DNA of 64,000 nt from Dehalococcoidia bacterium (GCA_009692665.1 SHYT01000008.1:14764-78763), one strand, 5' to 3'. Counted from the first letter of the stretch, positions 12,308-63,857 are shown. Numbers and translations: made by a program. The notes: generated by a model from the letters alone, not told the origin.

Positions 12308-12346
12308 AAAGGCCGGCACTGAAGGAATTCAGTGCCGGCCTTTAAT
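12308..12346 (+). terminator. Rho-independent terminator after SBP1
   Basis: Perfect 16-bp stem AAAGGCCGGCACTGAA / TTCAGTGCCGGCCTTT with a GGAA loop, followed by TTTAATT. Confidence 0.7.
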
Positions 12347-18419: not shown

Positions 18420-18458
18420 AAATGCATGGCAAAGGTCATAAACCTTTGCCATGCATTT
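18420..18458 (+). terminator. Rho-independent terminator
   Basis: Perfect 17-bp stem AAATGCATGGCAAAGGT / ACCTTTGCCATGCATTT with a CATAA loop, followed by a T-containing tail. Confidence 0.7.
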
Positions 18459-19481: not shown

Positions 19482-19752
19482 CAAGACTCCAAGTGGCGAA
19501 AGCACCCAGGTTGAGAAGATCAGTCGGCTGAATTATATGGCCCATAGCGTTCAAATGGGCCGGCTATCTTCCAGGAAACCGTGCCCCGTTCACCTGCACT
19601 GTAGTCACGCATGGTAGAATCGGGACATACTGTCAGGACGCAGTTCGGAGCGGCCATCCGCATCACATCTGGCGAGAGTAGTGGTAGCAACGAGCACCTC
19701 TGATACGACCTGTTACCACGGTTATCCTACATTGCAGAAGGAGGCATCCACA

Positions 19753-22146
19753 ATGGTTCAGCAGGCAAAAGAGAAAGCCAAGTATAAAGTCATCGGCACC
19801 AGGCCAATCCGCCATGATGGCGTGGACAAGGTAACAGGGCGTGCCCAGTATGGCGCAGACATCCGGCCTACTGGGCTCCTGTACGCCAAGATGCTCCGCA
19901 GCCCGCACGCGCACGCGCGCATCAAGAAGATAGACGTCAGCCGAGCCTTGGCCCACCCGGGAGTGCGCGCGGTGGTCACGTCCGCGGACCTGGCAGAGCA
20001 ACCGCCCCGCATCGCAGACTTGGGCGAGGGCTCATTTACGAACATGGGATTCCTGTGCATGAACGTCCTCGCGCGCGGAAAGGTCCTGTTCAAAGGCCAC
20101 GCGGTAGCCGCTGTGGCCGCCATCAACGCCCATGTTGCAGAAGAAGCCGTAGGGCTGATTGACGTGGAATACGAGGTGCTTCCTGTCGTTTTGGATGGGC
20201 TGGAGGCCATGAAGCCGGACGCGCCCTTGCTGCACGAGCGTCTCGCAAGCCTTTCCAACCCCAATGTCCGCCCCGGCGGCCTTATGGACGAGAGCGATAA
20301 GCGGAAAGGCAGCAACGTCGCCAACCACTTCGTCTTTGAGATTGGCGATATCGCTAAGGGTTTTGCGCAGGCGTCTATCGTTGTAGAGCGCTGGTACAAG
20401 GTCTCAGCGGCCCATCAGGGGTACATTGAGCCGCTCTCCGCAACGGCCAAATGGAATCCGGACAGCTCGCTCACCATCTGGTGCAGCAGCCAGGGCCACT
20501 TCACTATCCGGGAGCAGACTGCCAAGCTCCTCGGCCTGCCGGTATCCAAGGTCAAAGTAGTCCCAATGGAAATCGGCGGCGGGTTCGGTGCAAAAACCCA
20601 GGTCTTCCTGGAACCCGTTGTCGCCCTCCTCTCCAAAAAGTCTGGCCATCCGGTCAAGATGACTATCAACCGCACGGAGGTCTTTGAGGCCATCGGTCCT
20701 ACGTCCGGCGGCTACGTTCGTGCCAAGATGGGCGTCACCACGGAAGGCCGCATCATTGCCGCGGATGCCACCCTGGTCTACGAGGCTGGCGCGTTCCCAG
20801 GTTCTCCCGTCAGCGGCGGCGCGCAGTGCCTCCTCGGCCCGTACGACATCCCGAACGCGCGCGTTGAGGGATACGACGTCGTGGTAAACAAGCCCAAAGT
20901 CACCGCCTATCGCGCCCCCGGCGCGCCCAGCGGTGCCTTCGCGGCCGAGTCTCTAATAGATGAAATCGCACAGCAGCTCAAGATGGACCCCATAGACTTC
21001 CGGTTAATGAACTCCGCCAAAGAAGGTACGCGCAGGGTGAGCGGTCCCGTCTTCGGCAGCGTCGGCTTTGTAGAGGTGCTGAAGGCCGCCAAAGCGCACC
21101 CGCATTGGAAGGCCCCGCTTACTGGCAAGAACCGTGGGCGCGGTGTGGCTGCTGGGTTCTGGCACAACGGTGCCGGGCCCGCCAGCGCTACGGTCAGTGT
21201 CAACGCGGATGGCACGGTCAACCTCGTGGAAGGCTCGCCGGACATCGGAGGCAGCCGCGCTACCGCTGCTATGCAGGTGGCTGAGGTGCTGGGCTTGCGC
21301 GCGGAAGACGTTCGGCCCCAGGTGGCGGACACCGAGTCCATTGGCTTCACGTCTACCACCGGCGGCAGCGGCGCAACCTTCAAGACCGGCTGGGCCTCCC
21401 ATGACGCCGCCCAAGAGGTGAAGCAGCAAATGCTGGCCCGCGCCGCTACCATCTGGAATGTGAAACCTGACGATCTTAAGTACGAGGGAGGGGTGATCTC
21501 CCACAAGTCGGATCCCGCCCTCCGCATGCCCTTCCGTGACCTGGCGGCCAGGCTGAATGACACCGGCGGCCCCATTGCTGGCCGTGGCGCCGTGAACCCA
21601 CGTGGTGTAGGCGCGGCCCTCTCCGTCAACATCGCGGACGTTGAGGTTGACCCGGACACCGGCAAGACAACTGTCCTGCGCTATACCGCAATTCAGGACG
21701 TCGGTACCGCCATCCACCCAAGTTACGTGGAGGGCCAAATGCAAGGTGGCGCCGTCCAGGGCATCGGCTGGGCATTGACGGAAGAGTTCTATTTCAGCGA
21801 CAAGGGCCAGATGATGAACTCTTCGTTCTTGGACTACCGCATGCCTACCGCGCTGGACATCCCCATGATCGATACGGTCGTCGTCGAGGTGCCCAACCCA
21901 GGCCACCCATTCGGAGTGCGCGGCGTCGGCGAAGTCTGCATCGTGCCTCCGCTGGCGGCCATCGGCAACGCAATCCACCGCGCTACTGGCGTTCGCATGC
22001 ATACCCTGCCCATGAGCCCAAACAATCTTCAGCGGGCAATCGCTAAGAAAGGCGATGATGTCCACTGGACGGTTCCTACCAGCAACGGCGCGTCGCAGTC
22101 CATGAAAGCCGCCGTAGACGCCGAAGGTATCGAGCGCCATGAGTAA
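19753..22146 (+). CDS. Xanthine dehydrogenase/aldehyde oxidase-family molybdopterin-binding large subunit (L1)
   Basis: IGTRPIRHDGVDKVTGRAQYGAD N-terminus, AYRAPGAP, and the C-terminal RGVGEVCIVPPLAAIGNAI Glu loop. ATG 19753 follows GAAGGAGG. Confidence 0.9.
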   Translation: MVQQAKEKAKYKVIGTRPIRHDGVDKVTGRAQYGADIRPTGLLYAKMLRSPHAHARIKKIDVSRALAHPGVRAVVTSADLAEQPPRIADLGEGSFTNMGFLCMNVLARGKVLFKGHAVAAVAAINAHVAEEAVGLIDVEYEVLPVVLDGLEAMKPDAPLLHERLASLSNPNVRPGGLMDESDKRKGSNVANHFVFEIGDIAKGFAQASIVVERWYKVSAAHQGYIEPLSATAKWNPDSSLTIWCSSQGHFTIREQTAKLLGLPVSKVKVVPMEIGGGFGAKTQVFLEPVVALLSKKSGHPVKMTINRTEVFEAIGPTSGGYVRAKMGVTTEGRIIAADATLVYEAGAFPGSPVSGGAQCLLGPYDIPNARVEGYDVVVNKPKVTAYRAPGAPSGAFAAESLIDEIAQQLKMDPIDFRLMNSAKEGTRRVSGPVFGSVGFVEVLKAAKAHPHWKAPLTGKNRGRGVAAGFWHNGAGPASATVSVNADGTVNLVEGSPDIGGSRATAAMQVAEVLGLRAEDVRPQVADTESIGFTSTTGGSGATFKTGWASHDAAQEVKQQMLARAATIWNVKPDDLKYEGGVISHKSDPALRMPFRDLAARLNDTGGPIAGRGAVNPRGVGAALSVNIADVEVDPDTGKTTVLRYTAIQDVGTAIHPSYVEGQMQGGAVQGIGWALTEEFYFSDKGQMMNSSFLDYRMPTALDIPMIDTVVVEVPNPGHPFGVRGVGEVCIVPPLAAIGNAIHRATGVRMHTLPMSPNNLQRAIAKKGDDVHWTVPTSNGASQSMKAAVDAEGIERHE

Positions 22147-22171: not shown

Positions 22172-22200
22172 AGCTAGGGCGGGTACATCCCGCCCTAGCT
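22172..22200 (+). terminator. Terminator hairpin after L1
   Basis: Perfect 12-bp stem AGCTAGGGCGGG / CCCGCCCTAGCT with a TACAT loop, 26 nt after the stop. No strong T tract. Confidence 0.5.
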
Positions 22201-60576: not shown

Positions 60577-61005
60577 ATGAAGACAATTTCGTATAAGACT
60601 CGGACATTTTCATGGATTGTATTCATGATCGCAGGCATGGTCGTTGCTTTAAGTTGCAGCCAACCGAAGGCAGTTGTGTCCGCGGCTTCGGCACCAACTC
60701 CTCCGCCCTCGCGTCTAGCCATCGCCCAAGCCACAATCTTAGGCCGATGGCAAATGATAAATGGGACGCAATTTTATAGCTTTTACCGGGACGGCACGAT
60801 GGACCTGGTTTTCAATAACGCTTTCGGAACAGCCATAACCAATCCAGGTACTTATCAACTCATTGACGAGAGCCATATTCGCACCCAAACAAGGGATGCG
60901 TTTAACTTTGCTACGGCGGCCACTTACGAACTGAAGTTTGGCACAGGAACGGCAACGTTCGTGGATGCCCAAGGGCGCGCTGTCCAATATCAAAAGGCTC
61001 AATGA
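60577..61005 (+). CDS. Small hypothetical lipoprotein
   Basis: Signal peptide with lipobox VVALSC. Beta-rich Thr/Gly/Asn body. Visibly more AT-rich than the neighbouring genes. Confidence 0.55.
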   Translation: MKTISYKTRTFSWIVFMIAGMVVALSCSQPKAVVSAASAPTPPPSRLAIAQATILGRWQMINGTQFYSFYRDGTMDLVFNNAFGTAITNPGTYQLIDESHIRTQTRDAFNFATAATYELKFGTGTATFVDAQGRAVQYQKAQ

Positions 61006-61145: not shown

Positions 61146-62570
61146 ATGCCTGAGATAAAGAGCGCCCACTTCAAAGAAGCCGCCCGGAAGGTTGTTGCTG
61201 ACCCGCACCAGCAGGCGTCGCTGCAGAAGCTGGAGCGGTTTCGGACAGAGCGCATCCACGCCATTGCGGAGACCGGGCAGGCGCAGTGGGAAGTCATGCA
61301 GGCGCAGGCGCGGGCCATCAAGTGGCACACGCTAGAGCACCTGGACACCTACCTCGACCAGCTTGCGACGAAGGTGGAGAGGGCAGGCGGGCACGTCTGC
61401 TTCGCTAAGACCGCGCAAGAGGCGAACGACTACGTGGTGAAGCTGGCGCTTGACCGCGGCGTGAAGAACGTCGTCAAGGGCAAGAGCATGGTGTCCGAGG
61501 AGATGGGCATCGCGGACGAACTGGAGCGCAACGGCATCCGCCGCGTGGAGACCGACCTGGGCGAGTACATCCAGCAGCTTGCCCACGAGCCGCCGTACCA
61601 CATCATCGCGCCCGCCGTGCACAAGTCGAAAGAAGAGGTCAGCGACCTCTTTGTCCGCGAGCTGGGCGTGCCGCGCGTGACGGACATTCCGGCGCTGGCG
61701 GGGCAAGCGCGGGAAATACTGCGCGGGGAGTTCCTGAAGGCAGACATGGGCATGACCGGAGCGAACTTCGCTGTCGCGGAGACCGGCACCATGGCCATCA
61801 CCACCAACGAGGGCAACGGCCGCATGTGCTCCACCGTGCCGCGTATCCACGTGGTGACCATGGGCATGGAGCGCGTCATTCCCACGTTCAAAGACCTGGA
61901 CATTTTTCTGAAGCTGCTCACCCGCTCGGCGACGGGACAGCGGATTACCAGCTACGTGTCCATGTTCTCGGGGCCGCGCCGAACGGACGAGGAGGACGGG
62001 CCGGATGAGTTCCACCTGGTGATTCTGGACAACGGCCGCTCCAAGCTTCTAGCTGACCCCGAGATGAGGGAATCGCTGCTGTGCATCCGTTGCGGAGCAT
62101 GCTTGAACGTTTGCCCCGTGTACAACAAAGTCGGCGGGCATACGTACGGGTGGGTGTACCCCGGGCCAATCGGCGCGGTGGTCAGCCCGGTTCTCGTGGG
62201 CATCCCGAAAGCGAAAGATTTGCCGTTTGCCTCCACGCTCTGCGGTGCGTGCCGGGAGGCGTGCCCGCTCCAAATCAACCTACCGCGCATGCTGCTGACG
62301 CTGCGCGCCAAGGTGACCCAGGGTTCGATGGAAGACCGTGCGCCGTCCACGACGGAGACGCTGGCGATTAGGGGCTGGCAGTCGGCGATGAAGTCGAGCC
62401 GGATGTATGGGTTGGCGAGCAAGGCGGCGAGGATTTTGCAGAAGCCGCTGGTGAGCCACGGGTACATCCACAACCTGCCGGGGCCGCTAGGCGCGTGGAC
62501 CAAGTCGCGCGATTTCCCGCCGGTGGCAGACAAGCCCTTCCGGGATCGGTGGAAAGATTTGCACCCTTAA
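61146..62570 (+). CDS. lutB: Lactate utilization protein B-type iron-sulfur protein (LutB/LldF)
   Basis: LUD-type N-terminal region and 4Fe-4S motifs CIRCGACLNVCP and CGACREACP. Confidence 0.85.
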   Translation: MPEIKSAHFKEAARKVVADPHQQASLQKLERFRTERIHAIAETGQAQWEVMQAQARAIKWHTLEHLDTYLDQLATKVERAGGHVCFAKTAQEANDYVVKLALDRGVKNVVKGKSMVSEEMGIADELERNGIRRVETDLGEYIQQLAHEPPYHIIAPAVHKSKEEVSDLFVRELGVPRVTDIPALAGQAREILRGEFLKADMGMTGANFAVAETGTMAITTNEGNGRMCSTVPRIHVVTMGMERVIPTFKDLDIFLKLLTRSATGQRITSYVSMFSGPRRTDEEDGPDEFHLVILDNGRSKLLADPEMRESLLCIRCGACLNVCPVYNKVGGHTYGWVYPGPIGAVVSPVLVGIPKAKDLPFASTLCGACREACPLQINLPRMLLTLRAKVTQGSMEDRAPSTTETLAIRGWQSAMKSSRMYGLASKAARILQKPLVSHGYIHNLPGPLGAWTKSRDFPPVADKPFRDRWKDLHP

Positions 62571-62586
62571 CACCCGTACCCCGTAG

Positions 62587-62607
62587 GGGCAGGTTTGAAA
62601 CCTGCCC
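62587..62607 (+). repeat. REP-like hairpin GGGCAGGTT-TGA-AACCTGCCC upstream of the Y1-transposase-like gene
   Basis: Perfect 9-bp stem with a 3-nt loop, 17 nt after the lutB stop and 23 nt before ATG 62630. Confidence 0.6.
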
Positions 62608-62629
62608 TAACCTGCGGTGAGGAAACGCC

Positions 62630-63145
62630 ATGCCATATGATCCAGACAGACATCATAGACAAACCATCCGGTTGCAAGAATATGATTACACGCAACCGGG
62701 GGCATCTTTCGTCACTGTATGTACGCATAATCGGGGCAATTTGTTTGGCGCGGTGAGCAAGGGCGAGATGCGGCCGAATGCGTTTGGGAAGGTGGTGGAG
62801 GATGTGTGGAAGCAATTGCCAGCCCATTCCCCAAACGTTGTTCTGGACGCATTCGTTGTCATGCCCAATGACACATCGCGACCAACAGATAAACTCCGCA
62901 TTAACGTGACACCGGGTTCCCTGGGCGCCATTGTGCGTTCATTCAAATCCGCGTCGACCAAACAGATCAATATCCTCCGCAACACACCGGGCGCTCCCGT
63001 CTGGCAACGCAACTACTATGAACACGTTGTGCGGACGGAGGAGGATTTGGAATCCACCCGCAACTACGTCCTGGGCAATCCTGCCAAATGGGACGAGGAC
63101 CCGGACAACCTGCTCGTCGGTGGTGCGCATGTCCGCGCGCGATGA
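62630..63145 (+). CDS. REP-associated/IS200-like Y1 transposase homolog (RAYT-like) with degenerate HUH motif
   Basis: RQTIRLQEYDYTQPGASFVTVCTHNRGNLFG, LGAIVRSFKSASTKQIN and PVWQRNYYEHVVR (catalytic Tyr region) match the family. The expected VMPNH-x-H site reads VMPNDTS. The last 17 nt overlap the lutC start. Confidence 0.75.
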   Translation: MPYDPDRHHRQTIRLQEYDYTQPGASFVTVCTHNRGNLFGAVSKGEMRPNAFGKVVEDVWKQLPAHSPNVVLDAFVVMPNDTSRPTDKLRINVTPGSLGAIVRSFKSASTKQINILRNTPGAPVWQRNYYEHVVRTEEDLESTRNYVLGNPAKWDEDPDNLLVGGAHVRAR

Positions 63146-63857
63146 GTTCCTGAAATCTGTCCGCGACGCCATTCAGGCTGGCTCTGGCGCACACCACGAG
63201 GTATCGTCGTCCTCCGTCACGTTCGGTGGGCCAACGGACATCCGCGCTCGCGCTGAGGATGCCCGCCGCATCGCCGATGCCAAACGTCCGCAAGCCATCG
63301 AGACATTGGTGAAGATGGCACAACTTCAGGCGTGGAACCTGATCCGCGTACCGTCTCGCGACGGCGCCGCGCAGGCCGTCGCCGCAATAGCAGTGGAGCT
63401 GGGCGCAAAGCTGGCGGTGCGCACGCAGCACCCGGTGTTCACAGGAATGCCGCTGGACAAGGCGCTGGCGGACAAGGGCGTGCGCGTGCAGGCAATGAAT
63501 ATGGCTGAGGCGCCACCCGCTATGCTTCGCAAGACCGCCGCTGCTGCGGACATGGGAGTGACCGGCGTGGACTGGGTGGTGGCTGAAACGGCTACCGCTG
63601 TGCTGATTTCAGAACGGGGCAAGGCGCGCACCGCATCGCTGCTGCCGCCTGCGCACATCGCCGTTGTCGAAGCCAATCAGGTGGTGCCCACGCTGGCGGA
63701 GGCCCTGGCATTGGTGCAGGGATATGTCGCCGAGAAGGGGTGGGCAGGGCACTACGTGAACCTCATCAGCGGGCCAAGCCGCACCGCGGACATTGAGCAG
63801 ACCATCGTCATTGGGGTGCACGGGCCTGGCAAGGTGTATCTGGTGCTCATTGGGTAA
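63129..63857 (+). CDS. lutC: Lactate utilization protein C (LUD domain)
   Basis: MSARDEFLKSVRDAI..., ADMGVTGVDWVVAETATAVL and ISGPSRTADIEQTIVIGVHGP. ATG 63129; the longest ORF (62931) runs in an alternate frame of the transposase-like gene. Confidence 0.8.
   Translation: MSARDEFLKSVRDAIQAGSGAHHEVSSSSVTFGGPTDIRARAEDARRIADAKRPQAIETLVKMAQLQAWNLIRVPSRDGAAQAVAAIAVELGAKLAVRTQHPVFTGMPLDKALADKGVRVQAMNMAEAPPAMLRKTAAAADMGVTGVDWVVAETATAVLISERGKARTASLLPPAHIAVVEANQVVPTLAEALALVQGYVAEKGWAGHYVNLISGPSRTADIEQTIVIGVHGPGKVYLVLIG

Follow-up and report, generated by a model that had tools for sequence, protein, structure and literature searches.

A HuH-deficient, probably inactive tnpA_REP (RAYT) remnant with a flanking REP between lutB and lutC of a Dehalococcoidia bacterium

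A 64,000-nucleotide stretch of DNA from a Dehalococcoidia bacterium (GCA_009692665.1, SHYT01000008.1:14764-78763), hereafter the window, carries the lactate-utilisation genes lutB and lutC, and between them a gap of 558 nt (62571-63128) that is filled by a hairpin and an open reading frame (ORF) of 171 aa. The reading set out here, which we consider likely, is that hairpin and ORF together are a remnant REPtron, consisting of a gene for a tyrosine transposase associated with repetitive extragenic palindromes (REPs), that is, a tnpA_REP/RAYT gene of subclass 2.4 (RAYT group 4), and a 5' REP with a GTAG foot. The element would have been inserted between lutB and lutC and inactivated by an in-frame deletion, and is probably co-transcribed with lutBC. 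The features of the locus, in window coordinates, are the following:

61146-62570, + strand: lutB (LutB/LldF iron-sulfur subunit), the complete upstream host gene, with its TAA stop at 62568-62570
62571-62582, + strand: presumed native lutB-lutC spacer, 12 nt, left of the insertion, as judged from the spacers of relatives
62583-62611, strand not assigned: 5' flanking REP, with a GTAG foot (62583-62586), a 10-bp stem and 1-nt loop (62587-62607), and the 3' foot TAAC
62612-62629, + strand: leader, in which GAGGA (62619-62623), 6 nt from the ATG of the ORF, resembles a Shine-Dalgarno site, as read from the sequence
62630-63145, + strand: tnpA_REP/RAYT-like ORF of 171 aa, subclass 2.4 by similarity, without HuH
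62861-62902, + strand: deletion junction, where M78-P79-N80 is followed by D81-T-S-R-P-T-D-K-L-R-I91 in place of H-u-H-G-I-I-x-I and the REP-bearing loop
63002-63025, + strand: W motif WQRNYYEH (W125-H132), intact in the alignment
63065-63082, + strand: Y motif Y146-V-L-G-N150-P151 (catalytic Tyr, and Asn as third metal ligand), intact in the alignment
63110-63145, + strand: ORF tail LLVGGAHVRAR and stop codon, past the family-conserved end at N160, from sequence and alignment
63129-63857, + strand: lutC (LUD domain), the complete downstream host gene, with its ATG at 63129

The lutB product scores 476.7 bits against TIGR00273, over the cut-off of 444.8 bits, and has the domains LUD_dom, Fer4_8 and LutB_C, while the lutC product has a LUD_dom match of 117.6 bits. 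Since the C-terminus of LutB (FRDRWKDLHP) aligns residue by residue with homologs, and the N-terminus of LutC (MSARDEFLKSVRDA) aligns from residue 1 with seven homologs, both host genes are complete and the extra DNA lies cleanly between them. The ORF overlaps the start of lutC by 17 nt, in another frame, and a Shine-Dalgarno-like sequence for lutC (GGTGGTG, 63119-63125) is located within the tail of the ORF. This arrangement had been described in an earlier note, made from the sequence alone, and its positions for the hairpin and the lutC start, its length for the ORF and its 17-nt overlap are correct, the gap alone being 558 nt rather than the 559 nt given there. The same lutB-ORF-lutC layout, with an identical 171-aa product, is present in the NCBI metagenome-assembled genome (MAG), in a 12.5-kb contig of the ENA assembly ERZ1305449 and in the Logan assembly of SRR8561391 (L001), and this recurrence across three assemblies argues against a one-off misassembly. 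Rfam and tRNA scans of the window gave no match, and a promoter/terminator scan found no terminator-like site between lutB and lutC, the only promoter-like site, at chance level, lying inside the ORF (62868-62895).

The ORF has no Pfam match at E <= 0.01, and its match to the NCBIfam family NF047646 (REP-associated tyrosine transposase, REP_Tyr_transpos) has an E value of 6e-14 and a score of 52.1 bits, under the 80-bit cut-off. Many intact homologs are likewise without a precomputed PF01797 match, and thus the Pfam miss of the window ORF is only partly due to the deletion described below. A search of 5.8 billion protein clusters returned 4556 homologs, many of them named 'REP element-mobilizing transposase RayT', with the closest non-self match at 53% identity. 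A protein identical to the window product has been deposited under the name 'MAG: transposase [Dehalococcoidia bacterium]'. When 1.84 billion cluster representatives were scanned exhaustively with HMMER, 23,930 relatives passed a threshold of E <= 1e-3 and 899 one of E <= 1e-30, and no other protein shares the 50% cluster of the window protein. Neither the 5.8 billion clusters nor the 1.84 billion representatives include a close ortholog or an intact sister copy above 53-57% identity.

A phmmer search of the window ORF against PDB sequences gave nothing at E <= 1, and only the family profile reached the E. coli TnpA_REP (PDB 4ER8), a structure reportedly described by Messing et al. in 2012. 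The profile aligns FVVMPNHVHGI to WVVLPEHMHCI, and VWQRNYYEH...EYIxxNP to IWQPRFWEH...DYIYINP. In the homolog alignment (A1), W125, Q126, R127, Y130 and E131 are invariant, as are Y146, N150 and P151, whose counterpart in 4ER8 is Y115/N119. The earlier identification of a Y1/RAYT-type gene with an upstream hairpin is borne out by the homologs, by NF047646 and by the profile match to 4ER8. The catalytic Tyr had been placed in WQRNYYEH, however, and this sequence is the W motif, the nucleophile being Y146 of YVLGNP, which aligns to Y115 of 4ER8.

The Y1 transposases have been split into classes by Quentin, Siguier, Chandler and Fichant (2018, BMC Genomics 19:475; PMC6006769), with Y---NP as the signature of class 2 of TnpA_Y1, and with TnpA_Y1 subclass 2.4 corresponding to RAYT group 4 of Bertels et al. 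2017 (PMC6006769). Subclass 2.4 has the HuH motif NH[IFV]H, the W motif WQ and the Y motif YIxNNP, with proteins of 194 aa at the median; its REPs, of the 'long' and 'double foot' types (5' GT[AG]G ... C[TC]AC 3'), flank the gene, and its 'remarkable and unique feature' is the presence of in-frame REPs within the tnpA_REP gene, between HuH and Y (PMC6006769). According to the same study, sequences without the core motifs are probably non-functional proteins, and Y1 transposases work as dimers (PMC6006769).

The window ORF is 45-58% identical to homologs that bear every one of the subclass 2.4 traits, and it is by the traits of these homologs, not by reference subclass sequences, that the ORF is assigned on sequence grounds to TnpA_REP/RAYT subclass 2.4 (RAYT group 4). 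Core similarity, the WQ and Y---NP signatures, the motif at the N-terminus and, 22 nt upstream, a REP with a GTAG foot are what the window gene has in common with the subclass. It differs in having lost the N-H-[IFV]-H motif along with the rest of strand beta-3, in lacking both an in-frame REP between HuH and Y and a 3' flanking REP, in the decayed 3' foot of its 5' REP, in a protein length (171 aa) under the subclass median, and in a native stop codon that has apparently been lost, the ORF running into lutC.

In the case of the IS200/IS605 TnpA proteins (IS608, ISDra2), the features held in common are those of the HUH/Y1 superfamily, hairpin recognition and single-strand DNA chemistry, and the fold of intact relatives of the window protein also matches (Foldseek ranks 2-30). 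However, the Y motif of class 1 is Y---Q and that of the window element is Y---NP, and the window element has one hairpin in place of subterminal hairpins at two ends, no adjacent tnpB-like ORF as a partner, and no multi-copy near-identical elements. The earlier label of RAYT/IS200-like therefore holds for RAYT, with 'IS200-like' valid at the superfamily level only. With the E. coli TnpA_REP (YafM) REPtron, the window element has in common GTAG at the hairpin foot and, in its intact relatives, the fold and the catalytic layout. The E. coli enzyme, in contrast, belongs to subclass 2.2 (RAYT group 2), with DHLH and YIHYNP motifs and bulged REPs, and its system has no in-gene REP and is catalytically competent, whereas the window product is without the His pair.

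The state of the window protein is best seen against its relatives. In intact members, two His residues on strand beta-3 (HuH) and an Asn hold Mg2+, and the Tyr in the Y-x-x-x-N-P helix cuts single-stranded REP DNA. The order that follows VMPN in homologs is H-u-H-G-I-I-x-I, then a variable REP-bearing loop, then (N)VxPGSLGAIVRSFKS, whereas the window ORF reads VMPN-DTSRPTDKL-RINVTPGSLGAIVRSFKS. The interval from VMPN to WQRN is 48 aa in the window protein; in 119 homologs it is never below 59 aa (median 71.5), so that the window protein is shorter here by 11 aa or more. As judged by this alignment, an in-frame deletion has taken out the HuH-bearing half of the beta-strand along with the REP-bearing loop, a change beyond decay of the substitution type. 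Among the 120 best matches, HuH is wholly absent only in the window protein, with 118 of the 119 others keeping H-x-H and one (P0087) reading NPVH, and H-x-H is kept in all 80 of the genome loci surveyed (at L015 as T-H-A-H). The VMPNDTS reading of the metal site in the earlier note is correct, and alignment upholds the loss of the HUH motif; what had been called decay is an in-frame deletion. As both metal-binding His residues are gone, HUH chemistry is excluded, and the description of the element as immobilised is a reasonable one. Possible remnants at the junction of HuH codons or of the REP 3' arm (CACATC; TCGCGACC; RPT against the usual APT) were considered and set aside, being too short to tell from chance.

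AlphaFold models of the window protein and of an intact homolog (P0002) were built on the same 24-sequence alignment. The window protein has a predicted local distance difference test score (pLDDT) of 58.3 and a predicted template-modelling score (pTM) of 0.56, with strands beta-1, beta-3 and beta-4 unresolved, as opposed to a pLDDT of 82.3, a pTM of 0.78 and a well-formed sheet that includes the HuH strand (E81-88) for the homolog. The models agree with a deletion that would be damaging to the fold. In a Foldseek search, the best match of the intact P0002 model is 4ER8_A (E = 3e-7), followed by ISDra2 and IS608 TnpA structures, and the window protein's own low-confidence model matches nothing significantly (best E = 0.95).

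A survey of 80 homolog loci from GTDB genomes (L005-L084) provides the comparison for the hairpin. In addition to the NH[IVF]H, WQ and Y---NP motifs, close homologs have an N-terminal extension that is conserved and, between beta3 and alphaC, an insertion that is hypervariable. A perfect GC-rich palindrome is present in the gene at 64 of the 80 loci, a median of 14 codons after HuH, and has a GT[AG]G foot in 50 of these. The typical in-gene REP is GTAGGGGC-N5-6-N'5-6-GCCCCTAC, encoding VGAxxxxAPT or SPL (VGAGLKPAPT, VGAQRRCAPT, VGATHASPL etc.), and three homologs (P0016, P0064 and P0120) bear exactly VGAGLKPAPT. The statement in the earlier note that homologs carry a GAGLKPAPT-like internal peptide is accordingly right, and the readings VGAGLKPA, RAGFKPAPT and GQVSNLPLR are indeed present in translations of the window hairpin. 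The in-gene REP is already published as a defining trait of subclass 2.4, and so offers no new lead; a full-text literature search on hairpin-encoded peptides (GAGLKPAPT and others) found no paper. Within a locus, the core of the in-gene REP equals that of the flanking REP, and between loci the core differs (for instance at L007, L008, L017, L028, L048 and L071); L071 has 23 further REP copies within ~10 kb.

The window hairpin, GGGCAGGTT-TGA-AACCTGCCC, is exact at 62587-62607; an alternative reading has 10 bp in the stem and 1 nt in the loop. The hairpin belongs to a 29-nt unit (62583-62611), GTAG-GGGCAGGTTTGAAACCTGCCC-TAAC, of the GTAGGGGCAGGTTTSAAACCTGCCCCTAC-like type, which matches the canonical double-foot REP GTAGGGGCAGGTTTGAAACCTGCCCCTAC at 27 of 29 positions, with a decayed 3' foot that reads TAAC instead of the family's CTAC. 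Folded as DNA, 62571-62629 has an energy of -14.3 kcal/mol (z = -3.6). The core of the REP, GGGCAGGTTTNAAACCTGCCC, is that of the in-gene REP of L018, L028 and L036 (Chloroflexota, Brocadiaceae and Bacteroidales MAGs). The REP is 22 nt from the ATG, a position that is usual for the family, given that REPs with the same variable core as the in-gene copy lie 5-91 nt upstream of the start in 16 homolog loci (and just downstream of the gene in 9). The hairpin outside the ORF is an ordinary 5' flanking REP of a REPtron, and not a displaced internal REP. There is no palindrome inside the window ORF and no REP 3' of the gene, the REP being on the 5' side only; because the deletion also removed the internal REP, the hairpin is found only outside the ORF. 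REPs are expected to have many copies dispersed over a genome, and the count made here, which covers the 64-kb window, stands at one copy, no other being present at <=3 mismatches (chance expectation 0.00). Of 64 homolog loci, just 11 have a REP copy that is over 300 nt away from the gene and within ~5 kb on either side, and since REPs are this sparse around homolog genes, a single copy in 64 kb tells little either way.

Other hairpins are present in the window. Perfect hairpins with a stem of at least 9 bp number 12, against 1.8 +/- 1.3 in composition-matched shuffles, and none of the others is related to the REP at 62587. Two are long, with stems of 16 bp and 17 bp (12308-12343 and 18420-18458). 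Another, AGCTAGGGCGGG-TACAT-CCCGCCCTAGCT at 22172-22200, has a perfect 12-bp stem and follows, at 26 nt from the stop codon, an ORF of 821 aa (19681-22146). The stem is rich in G (TAGGGCGGG) and recalls REPs of the GTAG type, and the hairpin occurs as one copy with no T-run after it.

The evidence for insertion comes from the corresponding junctions in relatives. In the three nearest LutC relatives, all Dehalococcoidia MAGs (49-56% identity), lutB and lutC are spaced by 48, 29 and -4 nt, with no gene between them. Since these junctions are empty, the RAYT element is an insertion, as had been proposed. No close lutBC relative was found, the nearest LutC being only 56% identical, and the empty sites are those of distant relatives. 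From the lutB stop to the GTAG foot is a distance of 12 nt, and from the N160 codon (63107-63109) to the lutC ATG a distance of 19 nt, giving a sum of 31 nt. This is the size of a native spacer, and we estimate that the inserted block extends from 62583 to ~63109, some ~527 bp. At the point where members of the family usually end, the ORF lacks a stop codon, and it continues through the presumed 19-nt spacer and 17 nt of lutC. In addition, the G+C content at third codon positions (GC3) is 0.62 for the RAYT ORF, as compared to 0.85 for lutB and 0.75 for lutC, a value that fits a foreign origin.

Decay of this sort is nothing unusual for the family. In a set of 268 sequences, three, the window protein among them, have deletions that seem to be anchored in the REP-bearing loop, two of which remove HuH at the same size. 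The second of these two, P0281 (L088:265-855, ENA ERZ27271325), has a deletion of the same size and in the same place as that of the window protein, removing HuH and the REP loop to give VMP-PQNKSDGLFGMG-VTPGSLG, and its junction DNA, ATGCCGCCCCAAAAC, resembles the REP 3' arm CCGCCCCTAC. P0281 has also lost the conserved N-terminal MxYDPxxHH motif, sits directly after an unannotated upstream ORF, and has no REP seen in its 917-bp contig. A deletion shared by ancestry was ruled out, since the two proteins are not closely related to one another (ranks 214 and 135 of 267), and the two deletions are thus independent. The third, P0346 (139 aa), keeps HuH, with a deletion from the REP-bearing loop into helix alpha-C. 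Four homologs (P0087, P0258, P0277 and P0348) have single His substitutions in HuH.

The window gene is an inactivated member of a kind already described, the subclass 2.4 REPtron, and its history would, on the reading we favour, run as follows. A block of ~527 bp entered a lutB-lutC spacer that was originally ~30 nt, and an in-frame deletion anchored in the REP-bearing loop may then have removed the HuH half-strand together with the internal REP, leaving a protein that would be catalytically dead, without metal coordination and probably without normal folding. The remnant is presumably transcribed within lutB-lutC and translated to a non-functional product. Co-transcription is most likely because the ORF is open and has its own ribosome-binding site, because no terminator separates lutB from lutC, and because the end of the ORF lies inside lutC. 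That the frame has stayed open may mean that the deletion is recent, or that early stop codons would have a polar effect on lutC. Lying directly past the lutB stop, the REP may act as an mRNA structure, like other REPs 3' of genes.

Several observations weigh against this history. Outside the deletion, the window protein has 3 deviations at the 56 columns that are >=90% conserved, where the median for homologs is 1 and the 95th percentile 6, and the intact ORF, Shine-Dalgarno sequence, W motif and Y motif would fit a retained, functional but non-catalytic protein too. Low pLDDT is no proof of misfolding. The relatives with empty sites are too distant (49-56% LutC identity) to date the insertion. 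The preserved ORF, Shine-Dalgarno sequence, motifs and conserved columns would also favour a domesticated, catalytically dead protein, kept for binding the REP hairpin, as DNA or as lutB-lutC RNA, and modulating lut expression or mRNA stability. Such a protein would find its cognate hairpin immediately upstream on the same transcript, and the deletion of the same size in the unrelated lineage of P0281 also speaks for it. However, P0281 is itself further decayed, with its N-terminal motif lost and no REP in its contig, and the window protein is a singleton in its 50% cluster whose best relative is only 53-57% identical. Moreover, the deletion took half of the central strand and not only the two His residues, the modelled protein appears to lose the beta-sheet that forms the DNA-binding surface, and the GC3 of the ORF has not shifted toward the host value. 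Domestication, which the earlier note had offered beside immobilisation, is thus unlikely; no evidence for it was found, the lack of an ortholog above 53-57% identity, the collapse of the model and the foreign GC3 giving it no support.

A broader proposal is that the loss of the segment from HuH to the internal REP is a recurrent route driven by the REP itself, through hairpin-induced slippage or self-cleavage, and that it yields catalytically dead, hairpin-binding proteins retained by the host, in this case wired into the lutB-lutC transcript beside the cognate hairpin. A recurrent loss of this kind is hinted at by P0281, with its deletion of the same size and place and a junction resembling the REP 3' arm, and the three loop-anchored deletions give a hint of a deletion hot-spot at the internal hairpin, although with n=3 this is a lead only. 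As an account of the window gene, the proposal in full is quite improbable, and it is the possible self-inactivation mechanism that makes the loop-anchored deletions the one mildly useful lead here.

The possibility that the window protein is a still-active transposase or nuclease, through substitute metal ligands (such as D81/T82/S83) or as a heterodimer with an intact RAYT elsewhere in the genome, is more doubtful still. Both the catalytic Tyr and the Asn are preserved, the position of the first His has an acidic residue (D81), and the dimeric action of Y1 transposases (PMC6006769) would allow for a heterodimer. Nevertheless, the two His residues, together with the strand (GIIxI) after them, are missing altogether rather than substituted, a conserved alternative motif is seen in none of the 268 homologs examined, and there is no second RAYT or REP in the 64-kb window. 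Least credible of all is an assembly or sequencing artefact, in which the true gene has HuH and an internal palindrome and the region was collapsed by the assembler, for although palindromes can disturb assembly and the three assemblies may share or overlap in read sets, the three pipelines give an identical product, a 29-nt palindrome is far under read length, the junction is in frame with a sequence unlike a simple hairpin collapse, and internal palindromes have come through assembly unharmed in hundreds of homologs.

In terms of annotation, the protein now deposited as a 'transposase' would be better labelled an HuH-deficient, probably inactive tnpA_REP (RAYT) remnant with a flanking REP. 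The locus is a clean example of two published points, namely that a REP lies inside the subclass 2.4 gene and that members lacking the motifs are probably non-functional, and has little import beyond annotation. For the host, the question is whether the 558-nt insertion disturbs coupled expression of the lactate-utilisation complex.

Two further observations concern the surroundings of the lut genes. Just upstream of lutB is a 142-aa ORF (60577-61005) with a hydrophobic N-terminus, a GC content of 0.50 and a GC3 of 0.50, against 0.64-0.67 for its neighbours, and the same gene call in the ENA contig has no recorded Pfam family. Beyond the window end, the ENA contig continues the order lutB, RAYT, lutC with an amidohydrolase_2 gene, a gene for a CCG-domain protein (lutA-like) and then an SDR gene, an unusual order, as relatives have the CCG (lutA-like) gene placed before lutB.

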